In this document: piece by piece, positions 2,589 to 59,175 of the stretch
Layout: the number at the start of each line of letters is the position of its first letter
How positions within the stretch are numbered: position 1 is the stretch's first letter
DNA from: Candidatus Peregrinibacteria bacterium
Lineage (GTDB): Bacteria; Patescibacteriota; Gracilibacteria; UBA1369; LOWO2-01-FULL-3
Direction: 5' to 3'
Length of the DNA stretch: 64,000 bases
Assembly: GCA_026395515.1 (NCBI GenBank)
Contig: JAPLYN010000006.1
Coordinates: 12,844 to 76,843 of the forward strand
The notes under the pieces: generated by a model
What the model was told of the DNA's origin: nothing
What the model saw: the letters and a program-made list of their open reading frames with translations, nothing else
The model's database searches: none
Made by a program: the position numbers and the translations under genes

Positions 2589-2682
2589 ATTTAAATATAA
2601 TTATTGAAATTTTGTGAGAGGCACTATACCAGATACCCACCAAAAAGCAATACCCCCCTATATCTGATAAATCCATAAAAAT

Positions 2683-2711
2683 TTGACATTCGACTAATCA
2701 ATCTATATAAA
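2683..2711 (+). promoter_or_regulatory. Sigma70-like promoter of the S10 cluster
   Basis: TTGACA (2683-2688), a 17-nt spacer, then TATAAA (2706-2711). It lies ~160 nt upstream of rpsJ. Confidence 0.55.
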
Positions 2712-2819
2712 GACACTACAAAATTGATTTTCTGCTTTTAGAGAATCACTCGAGGACAACCACTCGGGACAGCTCAAAGAATTGTATCTCTCGCCTACTT
2801 GGCGTGATATCAAATTTAT

Positions 2820-2847
2820 AACCGAGCTGTAAAATCTCGGTTTTTTT
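2820..2847 (+). terminator. Intrinsic terminator inside the rpsJ leader (candidate attenuator)
   Basis: AACCGAG (2820-2826), a 9-nt loop, CTCGGTT (2836-2842), then a T-run to 2847. It sits 25 nt before the rpsJ ATG and downstream of the predicted promoter. Confidence 0.6.
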
Positions 2848-2872
2848 AAATTTTATTTAACCCATTATAAAA

Positions 2873-3193
2873 ATGGCTTCAAAGCAAAAAATCCGTATCA
2901 AAATCAAGTCTTTCGACCACAAAGTGATCGACGAGACAGCAAAACTTATTATTGATAACGCAGTAAGAACAGGCGCCATCGTTGCTGGTCCTATTCCACT
3001 TCCTACAAAGATCGACAGATTCACAGTTCTTAAATCTACTTTCGTACATAAAAACGCTCGTGAACAGTTCGAAATGAGAACTCACGCTCGTCTTATTGAT
3101 ATTACTGAAAGCACCCCACATACTATTGAGACTCTATCAAGCTTGAGTCTTCCAGCAGGTGTTGAGATTGAAATTAAAATGTTGCAGAGCTAA
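2873..3193 (+). CDS. rpsJ: 30S ribosomal protein S10
   Basis: [20 protein letters not shown]..., 106 aa, first gene of the S10 cluster. Confidence 0.95.
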
Positions 3194-3249
3194 TTGTATA
3201 GGTCAATAGTTGGCTTTCATAAGCCTTAAAGTAATTTCTTTATTTTCTA

Positions 3250-3278
3250 TTGACTATCCAAAAGCTCGTCTGTATATT
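3250..3278 (+). promoter_or_regulatory. Internal sigma70-like promoter in the rpsJ-rplC spacer
   Basis: TTGACT (3250-3255), a 17-nt spacer, then TATATT (3273-3278). Confidence 0.45.
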
Positions 3279-3381
3279 CTAACGGCATTTTGATTAATGC
3301 ACGTTAATAACTCTCTGAACGGGTTTCAAATCTTTTCAGGGCACAATCCCCTAAGTGGGATGACTTAACCTCTACAAACAT

Positions 3382-3963
3382 ATGTCAGGTATTCTAGGTA
3401 AAAAATTAGGCATGACTCGCATCTTCCAAGATGACGGCCGCGTGATCCCAGTAACTGTTGTACAGTGTGAACCAAACGAAATCACACAAGTAAAGACAGT
3501 AGAAAGAGATGGATATCCGGCGTTAGTCCTAGGTTTTTCCAAATTGAAAAAGCCTACAAAGACTCAGAAATTCAGCTTTGTGAAAGAATTTAGAATCCCA
3601 GCTGCAGACGTTGCTAATTACAAAATTGGAGACGCCGTAACGGTTGAGGTATTAGAAGGAAGCAAAATCGTAACTGTAACTGGCTACTCTAAGGGTAAAG
3701 GTTTCCAAGGTGTAATCCGCCGTTGGGGATTCCATGGAGGTCCAGGAGGTCACGGTTCATTGCACCACAGAGAACCAGGTTCATCTGGTTGCCGTGCTAA
3801 GCCGGGTAGAGTACAAAAGGGTAAGAAATATCCTGGTCACCAAGGTTTAGATCGTAAGACTGAGAAGAAAACATTGGTAACTGTTGATAAAGAGAAAAAT
3901 ATTATTCTTATCAAGGGAGCACTTCCAGGACCAAATGGTGGACTAATTCAAATCTGCAAATAA
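3382..3963 (+). CDS. rplC: 50S ribosomal protein L3
   Basis: MSGILGKKLGMTRIF... canonical L3 N-terminus, with conserved gene order. Confidence 0.95.
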   Translation: MSGILGKKLGMTRIFQDDGRVIPVTVVQCEPNEITQVKTVERDGYPALVLGFSKLKKPTKTQKFSFVKEFRIPAADVANYKIGDAVTVEVLEGSKIVTVTGYSKGKGFQGVIRRWGFHGGPGGHGSLHHREPGSSGCRAKPGRVQKGKKYPGHQGLDRKTEKKTLVTVDKEKNIILIKGALPGPNGGLIQICK

Positions 3964-32604: not shown

Positions 32605-33990
32605 TTATTTAACAGGTTCAAACTCCACTTCCTTACCTACCTTTTTTCCAACAATCTTTCCGTTCTTATAAACTAATTCTCCGTTCACAAATGTCATAAT
32701 CGGACAGCCTTTGAAAGTGCTGCCAGCATACGGTGACCACTTACATTTTGTAAACAATTTTTCATTTTTTACTTCAAACATTTTTTCCATATCCACCACC
32801 ACTAAGTCCGCATCAAATCCAGCCTCAACTTGTCCTTTATTCTTCATACCAAAAATTTTCGCCGGACTTTCACAACACAATTTCACCACTTCTTTCATCT
32901 CCAATCCTCCATCATTTACAGCATTCAATAAAATCGGCAACAAAGTATCAAGCTCCGGAATTCCAGATGGAACATCCATATATTCCTGCTCTTTCTCTAC
33001 CAAAGTATGAGGCGCATGATCAGTCGCAATAATATGAACTTCCCCAAATTTCAAAGCCTTCCACATCGTAAACAAATCCATCTTACTTCTCACCGGTGGA
33101 TTCACCTTTATCAAATTTCCAAAAGTCGCGTAATCATCATCAGAAAGCAATAAATGATGCGGCGCCACTTCACAAGTAATGCGTGGCTGACCAGCTTCAT
33201 CCAAATTCTGATATTCCAATAACATCGTTAATTCCTGATCGCTAGACACATGAGCAACATGCAATCTCTTACCATTCTCTTTCGCCAATTCACAAAGAAA
33301 TTTCACCGCACTTACCGCACAATCAGCAGATCTTATTTTTGAATGAACAGACGGATCAATCACCGCTTCTTTCGGCACAATAAGTTTTCCATCATCATCA
33401 ATTCTTGCACCATATTCCGCCAAATATTCTAAAGCTTTTTCTTTAATCATTCCTTCATCCTCTGCATGAGCCACAATAAACTTATTACACTTCTTAAAAA
33501 GCTCGGCAATAGTCTCAGTTCCCACACCCATATTTCCTGTCGAATTAGCCACATAAACTTTCACCGCAGGAATATTTTCAGCCTTATTTATTTCGCTAAT
33601 ATTCTTGCCGTCAAAACCCATGTACAAGCCATAATTACAATATGCTTTCTTCGCCACTAATTTTCTTTTTTCTTCCAAATCTTTCACCGTCAAAATCGGC
33701 GGAACATTATTTGGCATGTCACAAATAGTCGTCACACCTCCAGCCACTGCGGCTTTAGTTCCAGTAGTCCAATCTTCTTTATATTTCTGGCCCGGCTCGC
33801 GCAAATGCACATGCACATCAATAAGCCCAGGCAAAATAATTTTTCCCTTACAATCTATAGTCTCATCCACTTCATGTTTCTGTCCCCAATCAAAAGTATT
33901 CACAATTTTTCCATCTTCAATAAGAACGTCAGCATCGTACACGCCTAGCGCGCATCCGACCTGCCCATTTTTTAGAAGAATTTTTGTCAT
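32605..33990 (-). CDS. pyrC: Dihydroorotase
   Basis: ..LPGLIDVHVHLREPG... amidohydrolase metal motif, 461 aa, between pyrB and pyrD. Confidence 0.9.
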   Translation of the reverse strand: MTKILLKNGQVGCALGVYDADVLIEDGKIVNTFDWGQKHEVDETIDCKGKIILPGLIDVHVHLREPGQKYKEDWTTGTKAAVAGGVTTICDMPNNVPPILTVKDLEEKRKLVAKKAYCNYGLYMGFDGKNISEINKAENIPAVKVYVANSTGNMGVGTETIAELFKKCNKFIVAHAEDEGMIKEKALEYLAEYGARIDDDGKLIVPKEAVIDPSVHSKIRSADCAVSAVKFLCELAKENGKRLHVAHVSSDQELTMLLEYQNLDEAGQPRITCEVAPHHLLLSDDDYATFGNLIKVNPPVRSKMDLFTMWKALKFGEVHIIATDHAPHTLVEKEQEYMDVPSGIPELDTLLPILLNAVNDGGLEMKEVVKLCCESPAKIFGMKNKGQVEAGFDADLVVVDMEKMFEVKNEKLFTKCKWSPYAGSTFKGCPIMTFVNGELVYKNGKIVGKKVGKEVEFEPVK

Positions 33991-33992
33991 AA

Positions 33993-34910
33993 TTAACCTT
34001 TAATCACTTTTTTCAAAAGCGCCATCCTAATCGCCACACCATTTCCCACCTGATGAAAATATCTCGCTCTTGGATCTGCATCCACTTCAACCGCTATATC
34101 TTCCACTCTTGGCAAAGGCTGCAATACAATCGCATGTTTCTTAGCTTTCTTCATAAGAGCAGCATCCACCACAAACACTCCAACAAATTTCTTATATTCC
34201 CTATCGCTCACAAATCTTTCTTTTTGAATTCTGCTAACGCTAATCACATCCACTTCTTTCACCATCTCTTCTGGAGTCGCCACTACTTTCGCGCTCGCTC
34301 CCATCTCCTTAAAAATCTCACTCGGCATCTCCAATCCTTTAGGAGAAACCAAGACGAATTTTACTTTAAAGTGTTTCAACAAACCAAATTGTGAATGTTG
34401 TACTCGGCTATTTTTCAAATCTCCAATCATTCCAATAGTAAGTCCATCAATCTTTCCGAATTCCTTCCAAATCGTATAGAGATCAAGCAAAGCCTGAGTC
34501 GGATGTTCATTCGAACCATCTCCAGCATTTATCACGGGCACGTCACTATACTTAGCGAGAATCGCCACAGAGCCAGGTTCCGGATGTCTCATTGCAATCA
34601 CATTCGCAATCTGTGAAACCACTTTTCCAGTATCTTCCAAGGTTTCCAATTTTCTCACTGAAGAAGTCTGCATCATGTCTGCATTGCTTACCACTCTTCC
34701 TCCAAGTCTTAACATCGCCGCTTCAAAACTAAATCTCGTTCTAGTCGAAGGCTCATAAAAAAGTGTCGCCATAATTTTTCCTTCCATCTCTTTTCCAAAC
34801 TTTCCACTCTTCACCAATTTCTCCATTTTTTTGGCTTCAGCAAACAAACTTAGCAATCCTTCCTTATCGAATTGCTGAGTAGACAAGATGTTTTGGCCTT
34901 TGAATTTCAT
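33993..34910 (-). CDS. pyrB: Aspartate carbamoyltransferase catalytic subunit
   Basis: ..FYEPSTRTRFSFE...HPTQALLD... Confidence 0.94.
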   Translation of the reverse strand: MKFKGQNILSTQQFDKEGLLSLFAEAKKMEKLVKSGKFGKEMEGKIMATLFYEPSTRTRFSFEAAMLRLGGRVVSNADMMQTSSVRKLETLEDTGKVVSQIANVIAMRHPEPGSVAILAKYSDVPVINAGDGSNEHPTQALLDLYTIWKEFGKIDGLTIGMIGDLKNSRVQHSQFGLLKHFKVKFVLVSPKGLEMPSEIFKEMGASAKVVATPEEMVKEVDVISVSRIQKERFVSDREYKKFVGVFVVDAALMKKAKKHAIVLQPLPRVEDIAVEVDADPRARYFHQVGNGVAIRMALLKKVIKG

Positions 34911-34976
34911 ACTTTCTTTTTAATCCTAAACACTTTAAAATAAAAAAGCGAATCTGTAAAGCTAACCAAAATAAAC

Positions 34977-35411
34977 ATGGAAATCAAAAACATCGACGAC
35001 CTCATGACCCAGCTCGGGAACTTTTTAAACACTTACTACTATTATGCGGTAGCAGCTGGAGTAATCATTACGATTATTATCGTTGTGATCGCCCTCAAAA
35101 TTCGTCTAAAAATTATTAACAAAGGCAAAGGAAAATCCGATTCTTCATCTGATGCCGGCAGTATGATTATGTCTCTTCTCATCGGCAGCAATCCGGAAAT
35201 TCTCAATCAAATGGTCGACGAAAAAGCTAAGCATAAAGAAAAAATCATCGAAGAAATTAAAAGATTCAGCAAAATCAAAGACTTCAAAAAAATAAATGAC
35301 AGCACTGCAGAAATTACAGTAGAAATCGACGGCGAAGAACACTGGTACCGCGCAAAAACCACAGCCGATGGACACAAACCAAAGATTCTTTCCCTAAGTA
35401 AAATTAAATAG
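34977..35411 (+). CDS. Small membrane-anchored hypothetical protein, 144 aa
   Basis: Single hydrophobic segment (YYYAVAAGVIITIIIVVIALKI). Divergent from pyrB. Confidence 0.55.
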   Translation: MEIKNIDDLMTQLGNFLNTYYYYAVAAGVIITIIIVVIALKIRLKIINKGKGKSDSSSDAGSMIMSLLIGSNPEILNQMVDEKAKHKEKIIEEIKRFSKIKDFKKINDSTAEITVEIDGEEHWYRAKTTADGHKPKILSLSKIK

Positions 35412-35420
35412 ACCAGAAGC

Positions 35421-35449
35421 TTGCATTCCCTAATAATTTAAGCTAAAAA
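35421..35449 (+). promoter_or_regulatory. Possible promoter upstream of carA
   Basis: TTGCAT (35421-35426), a 17-nt spacer, then TAAAAA (35444-35449). Confidence 0.35.
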
Positions 35450-35469
35450 TAAGTAAATTCAATTTCAGC

Positions 35470-36540
35470 ATGTCAAAAGCCACACTTATCCTTAAAGACG
35501 GCACTCGCCTCACTGGCGAAAGCTTCGGAGCAGACGTCGCGTCTGCGGGAGAGGTTGTTTTCAATACTGGTATGATGGGCTACCCAGAGAGCTTTTCTGA
35601 TCCTTCCTACACAGGACAGATCATGGTTCTTACCTATCCGCTTATTGGAAATTATGGAGTTGGTGCCGACAGCAAAGACAAAGACGGCGTAGAAAAAAGA
35701 TTTGAAAGTGGAAAAATTCACATCAAAGGACTTATCGTTAGCGAATATTCTGAAAACTACAGCCACTGGGATGCAAAAAAATCTCTCAGCACTTGGCTTA
35801 AAGAAAATAATATTCCAGCAATCACTGGAATAGACACTCGCGCTCTTACTCAAAAAATCCGTCAGACCGGTACTATTCTAGGAAAAATTGTTCCGGAAAA
35901 AGCTACTGACACTGAATTCTACAATCCCGACCTCGACAATCTAGTTGATCAAGTTTCTATCAAGAAACCTAAAGTTTACGAGAAAGGAAAAAAGAGAATC
36001 ATCTGCGTAGATTGCGGTATGAAAAACAACATTCTTCGCAATTTTCTCGATCGCGATGTCACTGTCGTGAGAGTTCCTTGGAATTATGACTTCATTGCTG
36101 CCGGCGAAAAGTTCGACGGAATTTTCTTGTCTAATGGTCCGGGCGATCCTTCTATGCTCACAGAACTTCACGCTATTGTCCGCAAAGCTATTGCTCTCAA
36201 AAAACCAATTTTTGGAATCTGTCTCGGCTGCCAAATTATGGCTCTCGCGACTGGCGCCAAGACTTATAAATTAAAATTCGGTCACCGTTCTCAGAATCAG
36301 CCATGTATAGACGTTGATACTGAACGCTGCTATATCACAAGCCAAAATCACGGCTTCGCTGTTGATGAAAAAACTCTTAAACCAGGCTGGCAAGTTTGGC
36401 TTCGCAATGCCAATGACCAGACAGTAGAAGGAATCAAGCACAAGACACTTCCCTTCTTCTCTTGCCAATTCCACCCTGAAGCAACTCCAGGTCCTACAGA
36501 CACAACAAAATTCTTCGATCAATTCGTAGACCTGTTATAA
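35470..36540 (+). CDS. carA: Carbamoyl-phosphate synthase small (glutaminase) subunit
   Basis: ..VFNTGMMGYPES.SDPSY.GQI....PLIGNYG...; GATase triad context (GICLGCQ, QFHPE). Confidence 0.94.
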   Translation: MSKATLILKDGTRLTGESFGADVASAGEVVFNTGMMGYPESFSDPSYTGQIMVLTYPLIGNYGVGADSKDKDGVEKRFESGKIHIKGLIVSEYSENYSHWDAKKSLSTWLKENNIPAITGIDTRALTQKIRQTGTILGKIVPEKATDTEFYNPDLDNLVDQVSIKKPKVYEKGKKRIICVDCGMKNNILRNFLDRDVTVVRVPWNYDFIAAGEKFDGIFLSNGPGDPSMLTELHAIVRKAIALKKPIFGICLGCQIMALATGAKTYKLKFGHRSQNQPCIDVDTERCYITSQNHGFAVDEKTLKPGWQVWLRNANDQTVEGIKHKTLPFFSCQFHPEATPGPTDTTKFFDQFVDLL

Positions 36541-36556
36541 AAAAATTACCCCAGAT

Positions 36557-36935
36557 ACCAAAAACCCACTGACGAATCAATGGGAAAGTTTTAGACAGCA
36601 AAGACGTTTTGTTTTACTGGGAGCTTTTATTTTTGTTTTATAATCCGGCCAAGGTTTAGTGTTGTTTTCAGCCGCACCACCGGCCGCCTGGGCTCTTCAT
36701 AGACTAAGTATCAATGACGATGACTTGCTAGAAGCAGGACGGTACTCAGAACTGTCTGAGCAGCTTCGGCTGTCTACCTAGGGCAGAGAACCATTCCTTA
36801 GCGAGGAAGGCAGAGCGAACGATATTTTTCATTCACTCCAGCTCTCATCGCTATGAGAGATTTTTTGTTTTTGTTTCGAGATCTTGAGTGTTAATGAGCG
36901 GTGCTTTTCTAGGGCATTTGATTTCTTTTGAAATC
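36557..36935 (-). ncRNA. Candidate ~380-nt structured ncRNA, copy 1 (family unknown)
   Basis: Minus-strand TTGACA (36968-36963), a 16-nt spacer, TATAGT (36946-36941). A 5' hairpin GATTTC-AAAA-GAAATC spans 36935-36920. The terminator hairpin at 36584-36565 has a UUCG loop and is followed by UUUUUGGU. There is no conserved ORF. Confidence 0.45.
36842..36872 (+). terminator. Plus-strand intrinsic terminator inside repeat copy 1
   Basis: CTCTCAT-CGCT-ATGAGAG followed by ATTTTTTGTTTTTG. It would end a carA transcript that carries a ~330-nt 3' UTR. Confidence 0.5.
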
Positions 36936-37141
36936 ACATCACTATAGCAGGTATGAGTTTATTGTCAAAAAACTATAGTGGACGAATAGCGTAAAGTATT
37001 GTAAAGCAACATTCCCTAAAGATATGCAAATCTTCCCCTTTTCATACTTCCCCACACTCTCCAAAACTTCTCAAGTCCTATCTTTTGACTTTTACACTCA
37101 AAAAAAATATCTTCAACCTCCTAAAATAACTTTTTGAACAC

Positions 37142-39262
37142 ATGGCAGAATCAGAATTAGCAGTACAAGAAGAAAAAATTATAGACCCTCTTGCAGGTGA
37201 AGAACTTTCACAAGAAGACATTGATAAAGAAGTTCAATCAAGAATAGATGCCATTGAATTTGCCACAAAAGAAGAAATAATAGCCGCTTTAAGATCAAGT
37301 AATCCAACAGCAACTAGATATTTAGCCGCATTTTCAAAAAAAGATTTGCCTAGACTTACCAAAGCCGAAGTAGCCGATCTCGCCAAAGAATCTCCAAATA
37401 CAGCTGCGTCTGCACAAATTAAAAACTTAAACGTATCAGCTAGATTCATACGTCATCGTCTAAAAATAGAATCAGAAGTAACTGAAGGAAACAACAACGT
37501 AGTAAACCGTGTTCTATGCAATACCAGAATCAGGATTACAGGACAATCCGTTCCCCCATTCGTAGTTGAACTCCATCAAGCAGTAAGAGAAAAAATTCCG
37601 ACTCAAAATTCCAAAAAAGCAGAATTACTAGAACTAATTATCGATCAATATTTAGGAATTCCATTAGTAAATCTATCTGCCTATTTAGATCTTGAACCTG
37701 CCGACATATCAGCAGCAATTGAATCAATCAACGAAGAACTAAAATCTTCAAAAGTAAAAATTCATATTCGTAATGGAGTAGCAGTCATCGGAGATACAAA
37801 CGGATATATAACTCTATTCGACAACGCCGAAACTAGAAAAAATCTTTTCCCAAAGAAAAAAGAAGAAGCTCAGACAGAAACTGCAGATGCAAAAGCAACA
37901 AGACTAGAATCCGAATTAGGCGCAGCCTTAGCAGCATTAGCAGCAGAAAAGGAAAAGACTACCGCTGCCGAAACAACAATAGCAGAACTCACACGAAAAC
38001 TTTCAGAAGCAGAAGACATGGCCCTAGAAGCAGATGAAAAAGCTGGACAAGCCGAATCTAAAGCCACAAATCTCGAAGCAGAAAAACAAACTCTTACAGC
38101 ACAAGTATCAAAACTAGAATTAGATATTCAAGAATCTTTAAGAATATCCGCAGAAACAGCACAAGGAAGCGGATTAGAAGAGTTGAGAAAAGGAAAAGAA
38201 AAAGTGGAAGCAGAAGTAAAAAGACTAGAAGCAAAATTAGAAGCAAAAACGGCTGAACTTACTACCTCAAGAGAAGAATCCAGAACAGCACGTGAAGAAG
38301 CCCGTGTAGCAAAATCAGTTGAATCAACTCTAAGAAAACAATTAGAGGCAGCAAAAAAACAAGCCGCCGATGCTGAAGAAGCAAGAGGTGCAGCTATGAG
38401 AAAAGCAGGTAGAGGTGGAGTAGATGTTGATTCTGCAAAAGATAAAGCAACCATCCAAGATCTACAGGAAACAATAAGAAGAGGAGAAGAACAAAATAGA
38501 TCATTAAGAATCCAACTTCAAAGACAGAATGGATTAGCAACCATCCACCCTGAAGAATTAGCGAGACTAAAAAGAAACTCCACGGAATTAAATGGAGCAT
38601 CAGAAACAATCAGAAATCTACAAAGACAACTAGAAGCAAAAGAATCCCCTGCCCAACCTGAACAAAAAGACTCATCAGAACTAATTCAATTAAGAGCAAA
38701 ATTGGCAGAAAAAGATGCAGCTCTAATCAAAGCTCAACAAGATCTAGCTCAATCAACACAACAATTCACAGTTTTAACTAACGAACTTCGCGAAACTACC
38801 GAACTTCTAGAATCAGCAACTAGTTCAACCCCAGCCGCAAAAGGCCCTGAACCAAAAGTCACTGCAGTCGCTGCACCAGCTAAAACTCCGATTCCTACGC
38901 CAAAAAATCCTACAGTCGTCATACCAGCTCAAGCGCCAAAACCTAAACCTGCTCCAATTGAAGACCCCATCGAACAAATTAAAAAAAATGACTTCAGCAA
39001 TAGTGAAGCATTAATAAATACAGTCAATAAAGCCCTCACTCTAAACGCCGGAACCAATCAACACGGATTACCAAAGGCAAAATTAAGAGACATCCGCAAC
39101 GCCTTAACAAACCTACAATTTGGAAAAGATTCTTGGCTACACGATACCAGAGTAAAAATTGTAAAGGCGCTTAATGACATGAAAGAAAAAGGAAATGGCG
39201 ATCACATTCCAGTGGAAGCAGTTGAAGCATGCATAAGAACCATAGACGTATTACCTAAATAA
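37142..39262 (+). CDS. Coiled-coil protein, 706 aa (N-terminal globular part, long Ala/Glu/Lys-rich heptad region, Pro-rich linker, C-terminal domain)
   Basis: Long ATG ORF. The central ~300 aa are A/E/K/L/T-rich, as in coiled coils. No enzymatic motif recognised. Confidence 0.75.
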   Translation: MAESELAVQEEKIIDPLAGEELSQEDIDKEVQSRIDAIEFATKEEIIAALRSSNPTATRYLAAFSKKDLPRLTKAEVADLAKESPNTAASAQIKNLNVSARFIRHRLKIESEVTEGNNNVVNRVLCNTRIRITGQSVPPFVVELHQAVREKIPTQNSKKAELLELIIDQYLGIPLVNLSAYLDLEPADISAAIESINEELKSSKVKIHIRNGVAVIGDTNGYITLFDNAETRKNLFPKKKEEAQTETADAKATRLESELGAALAALAAEKEKTTAAETTIAELTRKLSEAEDMALEADEKAGQAESKATNLEAEKQTLTAQVSKLELDIQESLRISAETAQGSGLEELRKGKEKVEAEVKRLEAKLEAKTAELTTSREESRTAREEARVAKSVESTLRKQLEAAKKQAADAEEARGAAMRKAGRGGVDVDSAKDKATIQDLQETIRRGEEQNRSLRIQLQRQNGLATIHPEELARLKRNSTELNGASETIRNLQRQLEAKESPAQPEQKDSSELIQLRAKLAEKDAALIKAQQDLAQSTQQFTVLTNELRETTELLESATSSTPAAKGPEPKVTAVAAPAKTPIPTPKNPTVVIPAQAPKPKPAPIEDPIEQIKKNDFSNSEALINTVNKALTLNAGTNQHGLPKAKLRDIRNALTNLQFGKDSWLHDTRVKIVKALNDMKEKGNGDHIPVEAVEACIRTIDVLPK

Positions 39263-39756
39263 AAACTCCCCCACATACCAAAAACCCACCGACGAATCGA
39301 TGGGAAAGTTTTAATCAGTAAGAAATTTTTGTTTTTACTGGGAGCTTTTATTTTTGTTTTTACATCCAGCCAAGGTTTAGTGTTGTTTTCAGCCGCACCA
39401 CCGGCCGTCTGGGCTCTTCTAGACGAAATGTCAATGAAGACGAATTGCTAGAAGCAGAACGGTGCTCAGAACTGTCTGAGCTGCTTCGGCTGTCTACCTA
39501 GGGCAGAGAACCATCCCTTAGCGGGGACAGAAGAGCGAACGATATTTTTCATTCACTCCATCTCTCGTCGCTAAGACAAGATTTTTTTGTTTTTGTTTTG
39601 AACTTTCTTGAGTGTTAATGAGCAACTTTGCTTTTCTAGGGCATTGATTTCTTCTTGTTGAAATCACATCACTATAGCAGGACTGAGTTTATTGTCAAAA
39701 TTCTGTTCTAGACACATGCCTAATAATATTGCGAAACAATTTTTCCTAAAGATATT
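39263..39756. repeat. Direct repeat copy 2 (~494 bp, non-coding)
   Basis: Colinear with 36541-37025. It begins at the first base after the stop of the coiled-coil gene. Confidence 0.9.
39277..39665 (-). ncRNA. Candidate ~390-nt structured ncRNA, copy 2
   Basis: Minus-strand TTGACA (39698-39693), a 16-nt spacer, TATAGT (39676-39671). The 5' hairpin GATTTC/GAAATC (39665-39646) has an 8-nt loop. The terminator hairpin spans 39304-39285, followed by a U-run. Confidence 0.45.
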
Positions 39757-39810
39757 CACCCTTGTAATAAATCGCCAAAATTGCTAACTATTAAATATAA
39801 ATATATTCGC

Positions 39811-42132
39811 ATGTTCGTCTCTCTCGACTTAGAAACCACAGGTTTTGACCCAAATATTGATAAGATTATTGAGTTTGGTGCAGTAAAATTTGATTTAACA
39901 GGAGAAAAAGAAACTCTGAAATTTTTCGTAAACCCAGGAGTTACCCTACCAAAAATCATCACTCATATTACAAACATCAAGGATTCTGACCTAAAAGACG
40001 CTCCCCCATTCGAAGACAAAAGAGCTGAAGTACAAGCCTTTATTGGCAACCTGCCAATCATTGGTCACAACATAAAATTCGATCTCGCATTTTTGGAAGC
40101 GAACAAAATTGAAATTAAAAACCCAAGCTACGATACTCAAGAACTTAGCGGAATTCTTTTACCAAACATGCCTTCTTACAGTTTGGAAATTCTCAGCGAA
40201 AAGTTAAATCTTACGCATTGCGAAAAGCATCGTGCTCTCGATGATTCCATCGCAGCTATGGAACTTTTTCTAAAATTAATTAAAGAATTTGAAAACCTTG
40301 AACCAGAACTTTTAGAGCAAATGAAAGCTCTCACTCAAAAGTCTAATTGGCCGCTAAAGAATCTTATTTCCAGCATTTCCAGCAAACCAAATCCCGAAGC
40401 TAAAGTTACAAAAAAAGAACCGAAAGAATTCACACCATCAGCAAATTCTCTCAAAATACTCGAGCACACTGAGTCTGCACTTTTCGAATTAATTCCACCA
40501 TACGACAATTTAATTAAAACTCTTTGCGAGAAAGCAGATGGCGATACTTGCATCGTAGTTCCCTATCAAACTTTCAGAAAAATAAATAGCGAAATATCTC
40601 ATGAAGTAAGCAAAGTAGACGTTGCAAAAAGCTATGTATCTTTGAAAAGACTAAAGAGATTTAGCGAAAAAGAATTCTTCGAAAATTACGAAATCAGCGC
40701 ACTTTTAAAATATTTAAACTGGAGCAAACAAACAAAAACCGGACTACTCAGCGAAGTCGCACTCTTCCACGATGAAAGAGCTACCATTCTTAAAGTAAAT
40801 ATCGACGAAAACATTACCAACCCTGAAGAAGAAATGTTCTTCAAAAAAGCGCTTGAAAAAGGCCAAAACAAAGCATCTCTCTACACCAATCAAGCACTTA
40901 TAGAAAACCCGCCGGAAAATAAAAGATTAATTCTCATCGACTTTGATAATTTTTTAAATTCACTACATTTTCACGCTTCAACTTATATAAAGCTTGAACC
41001 AGCAATTGATATTCTAAAAACTTTGGAAGAATATTTCCCAAGCGACCTCACTGTCACCACCTTGATCACCAAGACTACTATCCTCTTTGGTCTCCTTGGC
41101 ATTATTTTTGAAAGACACAACGATCAGAGTATTTACGGAGCAAAAAGCACAATTAATACAGATATTTTCCAAACAAAAGAATGGATAGATGCAGTGAATA
41201 GCTTAAACAACGTCATCGAAATTTCCCAAGAATTAGTAAATGTAAAAAATGAAGAAACAGCCGGCTCCCTCAAACAATGGAAAACATTTTTAAAGAATTT
41301 ATACAGCATTCTTTCTAAGCCAGATTTAGCAAACAACATGGTTTGGTTAGAAAAAGATCCACAATCAAATATAGTAATACGTAAAGCTCCTTTTTCTCTT
41401 AAAGAAGACCTGAAAAACATATTTGGCAAAGCAAAAAATTACCAAATTATTGATGAATGCGTGACTATTAATGACGACGGAAATTTCATCAAATCTCTAG
41501 GAAATTTAGATTCAAAATTACCAATCTACGATCTCAATCCGAAAGACGAAAAGATCGAAATTTATATTACAAAAGATACTGACGGTAGCGATCTAAACAA
41601 GATTCCGCGATTCATTGAAAAATACTACAAAGAAAAATCTCAAAACATTGTGATGCTTTTCAGCGCAAAAAAAGATCTAGAAGTCACCACCCTACAATTA
41701 AGCAAAGAAAATGTTCCAGTTCTTCCCCAATTAGCTGGATCCTTAGGCAAAATCCAAGAACGATACATTAGTGAAAAGAAATCACTTATGCCGCCAGTTC
41801 TTCTAGTTACTTCTCACATTTGGGAAAATTTCGAACCAAATCAAGACATCGACACCCTCATCATTTACAAAATTCCTTTCGATCCACCAAGTGATCCAAA
41901 AATTATTTCTCTTAGTCGAAATTACGCCAATGCCTTTATGGAATTACAAGTTCCCCTAGCCGTAAAATCTACAAAGAAAATTATCAATCGCCTAAAGAGC
42001 AGTCACGCAAATCTCAAAAAAGTAATCATTTTTGACATTCGTTTAACAAACAAAAAATACGCTGACGTATTCTTGGAAAATTTAAACTTAATGGCACCAA
42101 CAAGCGTCGTAAAACTCCACACTCTCCTATAA
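39811..42132 (+). CDS. DnaQ-like 3'-5' exonuclease fused to a DinG-family helicase-like region with degenerate ATPase motifs
   Basis: The ATG at 39811 gives MFVSLDLETTGFDP.. (ExoI), HNIKFDLAFL (ExoII) and HRALDDSIA (ExoIII). The C-terminal ..LIIYKIPFDPPSDP.. is DinG-like. I found no GxGK[ST] Walker A, and DFDN occupies the DEAH position. Confidence 0.7.
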   Translation: MFVSLDLETTGFDPNIDKIIEFGAVKFDLTGEKETLKFFVNPGVTLPKIITHITNIKDSDLKDAPPFEDKRAEVQAFIGNLPIIGHNIKFDLAFLEANKIEIKNPSYDTQELSGILLPNMPSYSLEILSEKLNLTHCEKHRALDDSIAAMELFLKLIKEFENLEPELLEQMKALTQKSNWPLKNLISSISSKPNPEAKVTKKEPKEFTPSANSLKILEHTESALFELIPPYDNLIKTLCEKADGDTCIVVPYQTFRKINSEISHEVSKVDVAKSYVSLKRLKRFSEKEFFENYEISALLKYLNWSKQTKTGLLSEVALFHDERATILKVNIDENITNPEEEMFFKKALEKGQNKASLYTNQALIENPPENKRLILIDFDNFLNSLHFHASTYIKLEPAIDILKTLEEYFPSDLTVTTLITKTTILFGLLGIIFERHNDQSIYGAKSTINTDIFQTKEWIDAVNSLNNVIEISQELVNVKNEETAGSLKQWKTFLKNLYSILSKPDLANNMVWLEKDPQSNIVIRKAPFSLKEDLKNIFGKAKNYQIIDECVTINDDGNFIKSLGNLDSKLPIYDLNPKDEKIEIYITKDTDGSDLNKIPRFIEKYYKEKSQNIVMLFSAKKDLEVTTLQLSKENVPVLPQLAGSLGKIQERYISEKKSLMPPVLLVTSHIWENFEPNQDIDTLIIYKIPFDPPSDPKIISLSRNYANAFMELQVPLAVKSTKKIINRLKSSHANLKKVIIFDIRLTNKKYADVFLENLNLMAPTSVVKLHTLL

Positions 42133-59098: not shown

Positions 59099-59175
59099 GC
59101 GCTCGTAGCTCAGATGGATAGAGCATCAGCTTGCGGAGCTGGGGGTCACAGGTTCGACTCCTGTCGGGCGCACCA
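59099..59175 (+). tRNA. tRNA-Arg, anticodon GCG, CCA encoded
   Basis: Hand-folded cloverleaf: acceptor GCGCTCG/CGGGCGC, D arm GCTC/GAGC, anticodon stem TCAGC/GCTGG with loop TT-GCG-GA, variable loop GGGTC, T arm ACAGG-TTCGACT-CCTGT, discriminator A, then CCA. Confidence 0.88.

Follow-up and report, generated by a model that had tools for sequence, protein, structure and literature searches.

Two Copies of a Predicted RNA Gene at a carA-dinG Locus

The stretch of 64,000 nucleotides (nt) analyzed here (contig JAPLYN010000006.1 of assembly GCA_026395515.1, positions 12,844 to 76,843; in the following termed the window) stems from a metagenome-assembled genome (MAG) of Candidatus Peregrinibacteria/Peribacteria with a GC content of ~38%. 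It contains two direct repeats of ~490 base pairs (bp), located at 36536-37028 and 39256-39758 and ~85% identical to each other, while nhmmer and blastn searches of the window returned no third copy. A first-pass annotation made from the letters alone had proposed that the differences between the repeats preserve base pairs, as expected if the minus strand encodes a functional folded RNA. In agreement with this proposal, we conclude that the repeats very probably harbor paralogous, independently transcribed minus-strand genes for a stable, structured non-coding RNA of ~380 nt that represents a new family in the Peregrinibacteria/Gracilibacteria, i.e., within the candidate phyla radiation, and to which a protein-binding role in trans is tentatively assigned. 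The two genes, termed copy A and copy B, and their neighbors are arranged as follows:

36558-36935, minus strand: RNA gene copy A; predicted transcript of ~378 nt with its start at 36934/36935 and its 3' end in the U-tract 36558-36564, as deduced from promoter and terminator positions
39278-39665, minus strand: RNA gene copy B; predicted transcript of ~388 nt, at what gene order indicates to be the ancestral position beside the dinG-like gene
35470-36540, plus strand: carA, convergent with copy A and member of a conserved block carA - X - RNA - dinG
37142-39262, plus strand: open reading frame ORF706, encoding a hypervariable coiled-coil protein of 706 amino acids (aa), situated between the copies; it points away from copy A and towards copy B
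39781-42132, plus strand: gene for a fusion of a DnaQ-type exonuclease and a DinG-type helicase (Pfam and NCBIfam matches), divergent from copy B and a conserved neighbor across the family

Promoters, Terminators and Predicted Transcript Ends

A consensus scan of both copies found a promoter and an intrinsic terminator on the minus strand only, the promoters being of a near-consensus sigma-70 type. The elements concerned are:

36941-36968, minus strand: promoter of copy A; -35 element TTGACA (36968-36963), 16-nt spacer and extended -10 element TGcTATAGT (36949-36941), agreeing with the consensus in 11 of 12 positions
39671-39698, minus strand: promoter of copy B; TTGACA-16-TGcTATAGT, likewise 11 of 12 consensus positions
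36920-36935, minus strand: P1 of copy A, the 5'-terminal hairpin GAUUUC-AAAA-GAAAUC; every family member starts with a hairpin
36565-36584, minus strand: terminator hairpin of copy A, CCCAUUGA-UUCG-UCAGUGGG, followed by UUUUU (consensus scan)
39285-39304, minus strand: terminator hairpin of copy B, CCCAUCGA-UUCG-UCGGUGGG, followed by UUUUU (consensus scan)
36973-36984, minus strand: upstream element of copy A, CGTCCACTATAG (GTCYA-N3-AK as family consensus), a short distance upstream of the -35 element
39703-39714, minus strand: the same conserved upstream element at copy B

These signals are common to a family of ~20 homologs of 342-531 nt that were collected from MAGs of Peregrinibacteria/Gracilibacteria and from metagenomes. 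A TTGACA-type -35 element, a spacer of ~17 nt and a TAnnnT -10 element occur in all 20 members for which upstream sequence is available, and in the same 20 the 5' hairpin starts six to seven bases past the -10 element. Every 3'-complete member ends in a GC-rich hairpin with a U-run. The terminators of the two window copies share the consensus CCCAYYGA-UUCG-UCRGUGGG followed by UUUUU, and the compensation that had been noted here is real: a minus-strand U-A pair at 36579/36570 is replaced by C-G at 39299/39290, and for the pair beside it, both copies have U-G on the minus strand, where the plus strand would have C-A. Similarly, the 5' hairpin has been described correctly as having the same GAUUUC/GAAAUC stem in both copies, with a loop of 4 nt in one and 8 nt in the other.

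The GTCYA-N3-AK element lies ~10 nt upstream of the -35 element in nearly all of the 20 members, L039 and L041 being the loci that deviate. Read on the opposite strand, it resembles a -10 element, TAYNNT, followed by GGAC or AGAC (TATAGT and GGAC on the plus strand at copy A), and would probably serve as promoter for the divergent dinG-like gene. The duplicated element at copy A now faces ORF706.

A Multi-Branched Core Supported by Covariation

As shown by comparison of the family sequences, the predicted RNA comprises three parts: P1-P4 make up the 5' domain, the core is multi-branched, and the 3' domain consists of hairpin P10 followed by the terminator. The core was derived from the divergent sequences with RNAalifold and by inspection. 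Its two ends are joined by the long-range helix P5 (GCUAAGG/CCUUGGC), and within it lie the variable hairpin P6, helix P7, helix P8 with its apical hairpin P9, and hairpin P11 (CGGCCG/CGGCUG). It includes an almost invariant segment, GGCGGCCGGUGGUGCGGCUGAAAACAACAC, and a single-stranded segment, GAAAACAACACY. In the window, it is located as follows:

36648-36802, minus strand: core domain of copy A; P5 36802-36796/36654-36648, P7 36761-36744, P8 36738-36729/36701-36687 and P11 36686-36669, along with P6 and P9
39369-39522, minus strand: core domain of copy B; P5 39522-39516/39375-39369, P7 39481-39464, outer pairs of P8 39458/39408 and P11 39407-39390

Covariation was evaluated for 19 sequences (16 in an earlier version) with a core model of 30 pairs from P5, P7, P8 and P11, corresponding to 570 cells. 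Plain MAFFT misplaces single-base indels beside both strands of P5, and one or two N placeholders per row were therefore inserted, which are set aside in the counting. Pairing was found in 97.4% of the core cells, compared with 84.3% in shuffles and 28-44% in controls slid by one to three columns. Changes on both sides affect 16 of the 30 pairs (9.7 in shuffles) and 89 cells (23.9 in shuffles), including four of the seven pairs in P5 and six of the seven in P7, and the covariation score of 0.473 (0.209 in shuffles) was reached by none of 500 shuffles. In the sequences that were added after the structure had been fixed (L038, L040 and L041), ~94% of the cells pair. Locus L039, which is too divergent for automatic alignment, retains P5 as GCUUGGG/CCCAGGC, and its P11, with the strands GCCCC/GGGGU, shows a double compensation. 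The remaining elements, i.e., P1-P4, P6, P9, P10a/b and the terminator, appear at the same places with differing sequences in folds of the individual members; for the 3' domain, RNAalifold recovers only the terminator from an uncurated alignment.

The two window copies on their own are merely suggestive, and it is the family data that are decisive. Between copies A and B, nine of 93 modeled pairs differ, of which five are kept and four are broken or re-registered. The CTCAGA helix highlighted in the first-pass annotation is identical with P7, where the closing pair changes from G-U (36761/36744) to G-C (39481/39464). Double compensations that had been overlooked are present in P8 (C-G to U-A; 36738/36687 versus 39458/39408) and in P9 (A-U to G-C; 36721/36710 versus 39441/39430). 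Three of the six helices offered at that time are not maintained in the family, whereas the terminator, the 5' hairpin and the CTCAGA helix are retained. The complementarity between 36646-36652 and 36680-36686 exists in the sequence; the helix is lost in the homologs. A variable U/A position would give G-A mismatches, and the bases involved belong to P5 and P11. A hairpin given as TTCCT/AGGAA in one copy and TCCC/GGGA in the other pairs only with a slip in register, overlaps P5 and is absent from distant homologs. Finally, the segment read as a CAGC-TTCG-GCTG hairpin is a variable joining segment that elsewhere appears, for example, as CCGGAG, CCAAGG, CCGAUU or GCGAUG. As this hairpin is not conserved, neither its breakage in copy B nor its plus-strand UUCG loop, which had been considered to leave the strand unsettled, carries any weight in the assignment of the strand.

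With regard to strand, the asymmetry is pronounced. The core model contains 55 G-U cells and one A-C cell, pairing amounts to 97.9% in the minus-strand sense versus 86.7% when read from the plus strand, and P5 includes one U-G pair that is shared without variation by all 19 sequences. In copies A and B, ten and eight modeled pairs, respectively, are G-U, versus none and one that are A-C. Folding z scores are -4.96 (minus) versus -1.24 (plus) for copy A and -5.33 versus -3.46 for copy B; among divergent homologs, the sense strand is more negative in 11 of 11 cases, with means of -6.27 (sense) and -3.67 (antisense). The comparison with more homologs and the strand-asymmetry analysis that had been recommended as a check have thus both been carried out, and they yielded compensatory changes and a clear preference for the sense strand. 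Promoter and terminator throughout the family, covariation in the core, the G-U excess and the better folding of the sense strand all lend strong support to a functional RNA that folds in the minus-strand sense.

In P3, the purine strand GAGAGA can pair either with an upstream UCUCU or with the pyrimidine-rich linker preceding P5 (CUCUUUCUUU type). The regions concerned are 36844-36860 and 36803-36815 in copy A and the homologous positions in all members, and minimum-free-energy folds choose differing partners among members. This may reflect an alternative conformation or mere low sequence complexity. Three additional elements, judged by eye, were dropped for lack of support: a K-turn at GAUGG/CCGAAG; a pseudoknot between the P11 loop GUGGUG and a CAACAC downstream of it, where the bases hardly vary and L041 offers no compensation; and an interaction between the P2 loop CCUAGAAA and the UUCUAG of P8, which is confined to the window clade.

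Distribution, Synteny and Duplication

An exact-pattern scan of the GTDB species genomes retrieved three close MAGs only. Metagenomes were scanned with a 19-nt pattern from the most conserved segment, which led to 25 loci, 17 of them true homologs (~11 distinct, much more divergent, 342-531 nt) and eight chance matches. A second route made no use of any RNA pattern and proceeded via DinG homologs of one distant locus; it led to four loci, and the RNA is present upstream of the DinG homolog in all four. Loci L038 and L040 are labeled as Peregrinibacteria and L041 as Gracilibacteria.

The RNA gene directly adjoins a dinG-like gene in divergent orientation in 12 of 14 distinct lineages, with DinG identity to the window protein decreasing from 80% to 33%. 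On its other side, the RNA gene is convergent with one or two fast-evolving genes of the ORF706 family, beyond which carA is found. One exception is L039, where a gene for a protein of 311 aa (2662-3597) separates the RNA from the dinG-like gene; at L029, only a DinG-like fragment of 48 aa lies ~1.3 kb upstream with a 304-aa open reading frame in between (146-289 and 686-1600). In the window, a pyrimidine-biosynthesis cluster at 32605-36540 (a dihydroorotase-like gene, pyrB, a 144-aa open reading frame and carA) ends at the RNA locus, and this cluster is syntenic in the relatives L002, L023, L030, L039 and L040.

Homologs of ORF706 (43-72% identity) were always flanked by the RNA; they were encountered on short Logan contigs, all of which are broken inside the repeat on both sides. 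The only long contig with an ORF706 homolog, from GCA_943357285.1, carries both copies, each orthologous to copy A or copy B, so that the A/B duplication predates the split between the window and GCA_943357285.1. The single-copy relatives L013 and L023 carry the RNA gene at the position of copy B only, and copy A is therefore the derived duplicate. As judged from gene order, copy B occupies the ancestral locus, and copy A arose by a lineage-specific duplication that included the promoter region. L040, from a different lineage of the Peregrinibacteria, has the gene twice in tandem (3006-3447 and 3490-3932, minus strand), directly upstream of its dinG-like gene and with hardly any difference between the two copies. 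The RNA gene has accordingly been duplicated independently, in dispersed form in the window clade and in tandem in L040, and such repeated duplication would point to selection for dosage.

The ORF706 product did not match any Pfam or NCBIfam family, and a PDB sequence search, AlphaFold2 and Foldseek yielded a generic coiled coil only, which in the AlphaFold2 model is predicted for residues 248-560. The genes convergent with the RNA are hypervariable, exhibiting 72% identity between genomes in which carA is 99% identical. Their products share just an N-terminal stretch of ~100 aa, corresponding to ORF706 residues ~100-225 (L013, L015, L017, L018, L029, L030, L036, L037, L026 and L041). In L041 from the Gracilibacteria, the protein in the ORF706 slot carries an S-layer homology (SLH) domain.

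The presence of two RNA copies has the practical consequence that short-read assemblies break at the locus. The breaks occur within the RNA repeat, where identical stretches exceed the k-mer length (Logan contigs L001 and L003-L008; contig ends of L009, L011 and L012). The 2016 genome paper on Candidatus Peribacter riflensis mentions one direct repeat of about the insert size, for which an alternative assembly path would drop ~3 kb (PMC4736985). This repeat shares its geometry with the window pair and may be the same locus.

A-Rich Tracts and Proposed Role

Repeated A-rich tracts are a second feature of the family besides the core. They are found at the following places:

36861-36876, minus strand: A-rich tract 1 of copy A, AAACAAAAACAAAAAA, in the single-stranded linker before P3
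36625-36639, minus strand: A-rich tract 2 of copy A, with the sequence AAAACAAAAAUAAAA, directly on the 3' side of P5
36603-36612, minus strand: the shorter tract 3 of copy A, ACAAAAC, in the loop of hairpin P10b
39582-39599, minus strand: A-rich tract 1 of copy B; its tract 2 occupies 39346-39361, and the P10b loop contains tract 3 (~39322-39334)

Each RNA of the family contains one to four strict copies of AAAACAAAAAYAAAA in linkers and hairpin loops. The family sites are located after P2, just 3' of P5 and in the P10b loop, and extra tracts occupy the apical loops of lineage-specific P4 insertions (L036, L018, L037 and L038). The density of AAAACAAAAAYAAAA is 5.24 per kb in the RNAs versus 0.025 per kb in ~650 kb of flanking sequence, a ~200-fold difference, and within the window these tracts are confined to the two RNA genes. 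In one frame, AAAACAAAAAYAAAA corresponds to (AAN)n repeats, a type of motif to which Hfq binds with its distal face and which is employed by CrcZ.

The RNA might act in trans as a protein-binding scaffold or as a sequestering RNA, via the AAAACAAAAAYAAAA tracts. Such a role is suggested by the A-rich tracts in combination with the strength of the promoter, terminal hairpins that would be protective and the repeated duplication. From these features of sequence and predicted structure, an RNA that is abundant and acts in trans by binding or sequestering a protein is a possible though tentative reading. tblastn found no match for Hfq or CsrA in ~400 kb of sequence, an amount that is uninformative for whole genomes.

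Alternative Explanations

The existence of the RNA, its strand and its core fold are well supported, and as a new family it falls outside every described family tested. With the 4227 covariance models of Rfam 15 at gathering threshold, the window contains a tRNA at 59099 only. Around both copies, a search at E <= 10 gave only matches far below threshold (12-20 bits versus cut-offs of 39-95), and at E <= 1 five divergent homologous loci gave no match at the RNA. Literature searches on non-coding RNAs of Peregrinibacteria, Patescibacteria and Gracilibacteria and on Hfq in the candidate phyla radiation retrieved nothing describing it. The locus has what is generally expected of a free-standing small-RNA gene, namely its own promoter, an intrinsic terminator, a conserved structure and the absence of a conserved open reading frame. 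Several points nevertheless weigh against the interpretation as a whole. The core alignment was curated with the N placeholders mentioned above, and the structure was derived from the same sequences on which it was evaluated, with the exception of L038, L040 and L041. P1-P4, P6, P9 and P10 depend on per-sequence folds and a few worked examples, and the transcript ends are predictions from promoter and terminator positions. The apparent invariance of the core segment is inflated because 11 of the homologs were located by the 19-nt pattern that lies inside it, and the synteny-derived loci L039 and L041 do vary there. With respect to the proposed role, the predicted helix P10a takes up the 3' half of tract 2, and protein binding as such is purely inferred.

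As the main alternative to a sponge, and one considered only slightly less probable, the RNA could be a subunit of an unrecognized ribonucleoprotein or a catalytic or "ornate" RNA with the core as its functional center, possibly acting together with DnaQ/DinG or with an ORF706-family protein. It might constitute the core of a ribonucleoprotein or ribozyme specific to the Peregrinibacteria/Gracilibacteria branch that has been functionally tied to its DnaQ/DinG neighbor since these lineages diverged, and would then define a new class of large functional RNA. A nearly invariant segment of ~30 nt and a multi-branched core that are kept while DinG falls to 33% identity speak for this idea, as do the strict synteny with dinG-like and ORF706-family genes, the size of 342-531 nt and the lineage-specific helix expansions, which are typical of large structured RNAs. 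We nonetheless regard it as doubtful, because synteny by itself does not prove a physical or functional link, a gene intervenes at L039 and only a DinG fragment is nearby at L029, and ORF706 has neither an informative fold nor a family match. A base-pairing small RNA acting in trans, or an antisense regulator of the neighboring genes, would also be encoded by a free-standing gene with promoter, terminator and conserved single-stranded segments. This is unlikely, however, for an RNA that overlaps none of the flanking genes, whose conserved single strands have no complementary sites elsewhere in the 64-kb window, and that is far larger and more structured than typical base-pairing small RNAs.

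The position of the RNA between plus-strand genes, and a terminator hairpin that could also stop convergent plus-strand transcription, are compatible with a cis element of plus-strand transcripts, i.e., a 3' untranslated region of carA or ORF706 or a leader of ORF706 or dinG. With the helices failing on the plus strand (55 G-U versus one A-C; 86.7% pairing), a conserved promoter and U-tract on the minus strand and plus-strand folds that are weaker in every case, such an element is very improbable. A divergent housekeeping RNA is equally improbable. The size range of the family overlaps with those of tmRNA and RNase P RNA, and a strong promoter of the housekeeping type is present, yet Rfam 15, including the 6S, RNase P and SRP models, did not match even at permissive E-values. 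As to tmRNA, ARAGORN found none, and the RNA ends in a terminator hairpin with a U-tract rather than in CCA or a tRNA-like domain; as to 6S RNA, the multi-hairpin, multi-branched fold of 342-531 nt differs from a rod of ~180 nt with a central bubble. A non-functional dispersed repeat, a mobile-element remnant or a small-protein gene is extremely improbable, although direct repeats do flank a gene and both copies share an open reading frame of 28 aa. In most lineages the sequence is single-copy and syntenic, it covaries, and terminal inverted repeats, a transposase and matches to phages, plasmids or viral contigs were not found; moreover, the 28-aa frame is not conserved, with open reading frames and peptides differing between members. 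This frame (MKNIVRS...LRQF; 36746-36832 and 39466-39552, minus strand) occurs in both copies and in close relatives. Since L013, L031 and more distant members lack it or have only a truncated version, it is probably not a gene. An independently transcribed, structured RNA remains the preferred reading for both copies.

Comparison With Known Systems

Bacteria of the candidate phyla radiation have genomes of ~1 Mb, and to our knowledge almost nothing is known about their RNA biology. The RNA described here bears the marks of an important cellular RNA: a size of 340-530 nt, strong covariation, a strong promoter, maintenance beside a gene whose protein has diverged to 33% identity and independent duplication on at least two occasions. 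Its A-rich tracts, invariant core and DinG neighborhood provide a handle for finding an RNA-binding partner in organisms that have so far been unculturable.

Among characterized RNAs, CrcZ and CrcY from Pseudomonas, which sequester Hfq/Crc (RF01675), are similar in being free-standing, ~400 nt in length and equipped with several single-stranded A-rich tracts of the AAnAAnAA type between hairpins, and several accessible tracts of this kind are likewise present in the new family. On the tracts, the CrcZ model is the only Rfam match, with 11.5-12.1 bits versus a gathering score of 95, a value that does not indicate homology. In addition to this absence of homology in sequence and structure, CrcZ lacks a covarying multi-branched core and an invariant segment, and it is a proteobacterial RNA under CbrAB/RpoN control, in contrast to the sigma-70-type promoter of the window RNA. 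The CsrB/RsmZ sponges and 6S RNA are abundant stable RNAs that bind a protein via repeated or mimicking motifs and frequently occur in extra copies (RsmX/Y/Z; 6S-1 and 6S-2). The window RNA differs from them in having neither GGA-in-loop repeats nor a rod with a central bubble, and no homology was detected.

A general resemblance in kind exists to OLE, ROOL, GOLLD, the raiA motif and HEARO, which combine a large, intricate fold and highly conserved nucleotides with a narrow phylogenetic range and were discovered by comparative genomics. Their Rfam models do not match the window RNA, which is also smaller than OLE, ROOL and GOLLD. As no described family was matched, the RNA is a new addition, and one accessible to experiment, to the few large bacterial RNAs whose function is unknown, from which it is distinguished by its occurrence in the candidate phyla radiation, its carA - X - RNA - dinG neighborhood and its repeated A-rich tracts.

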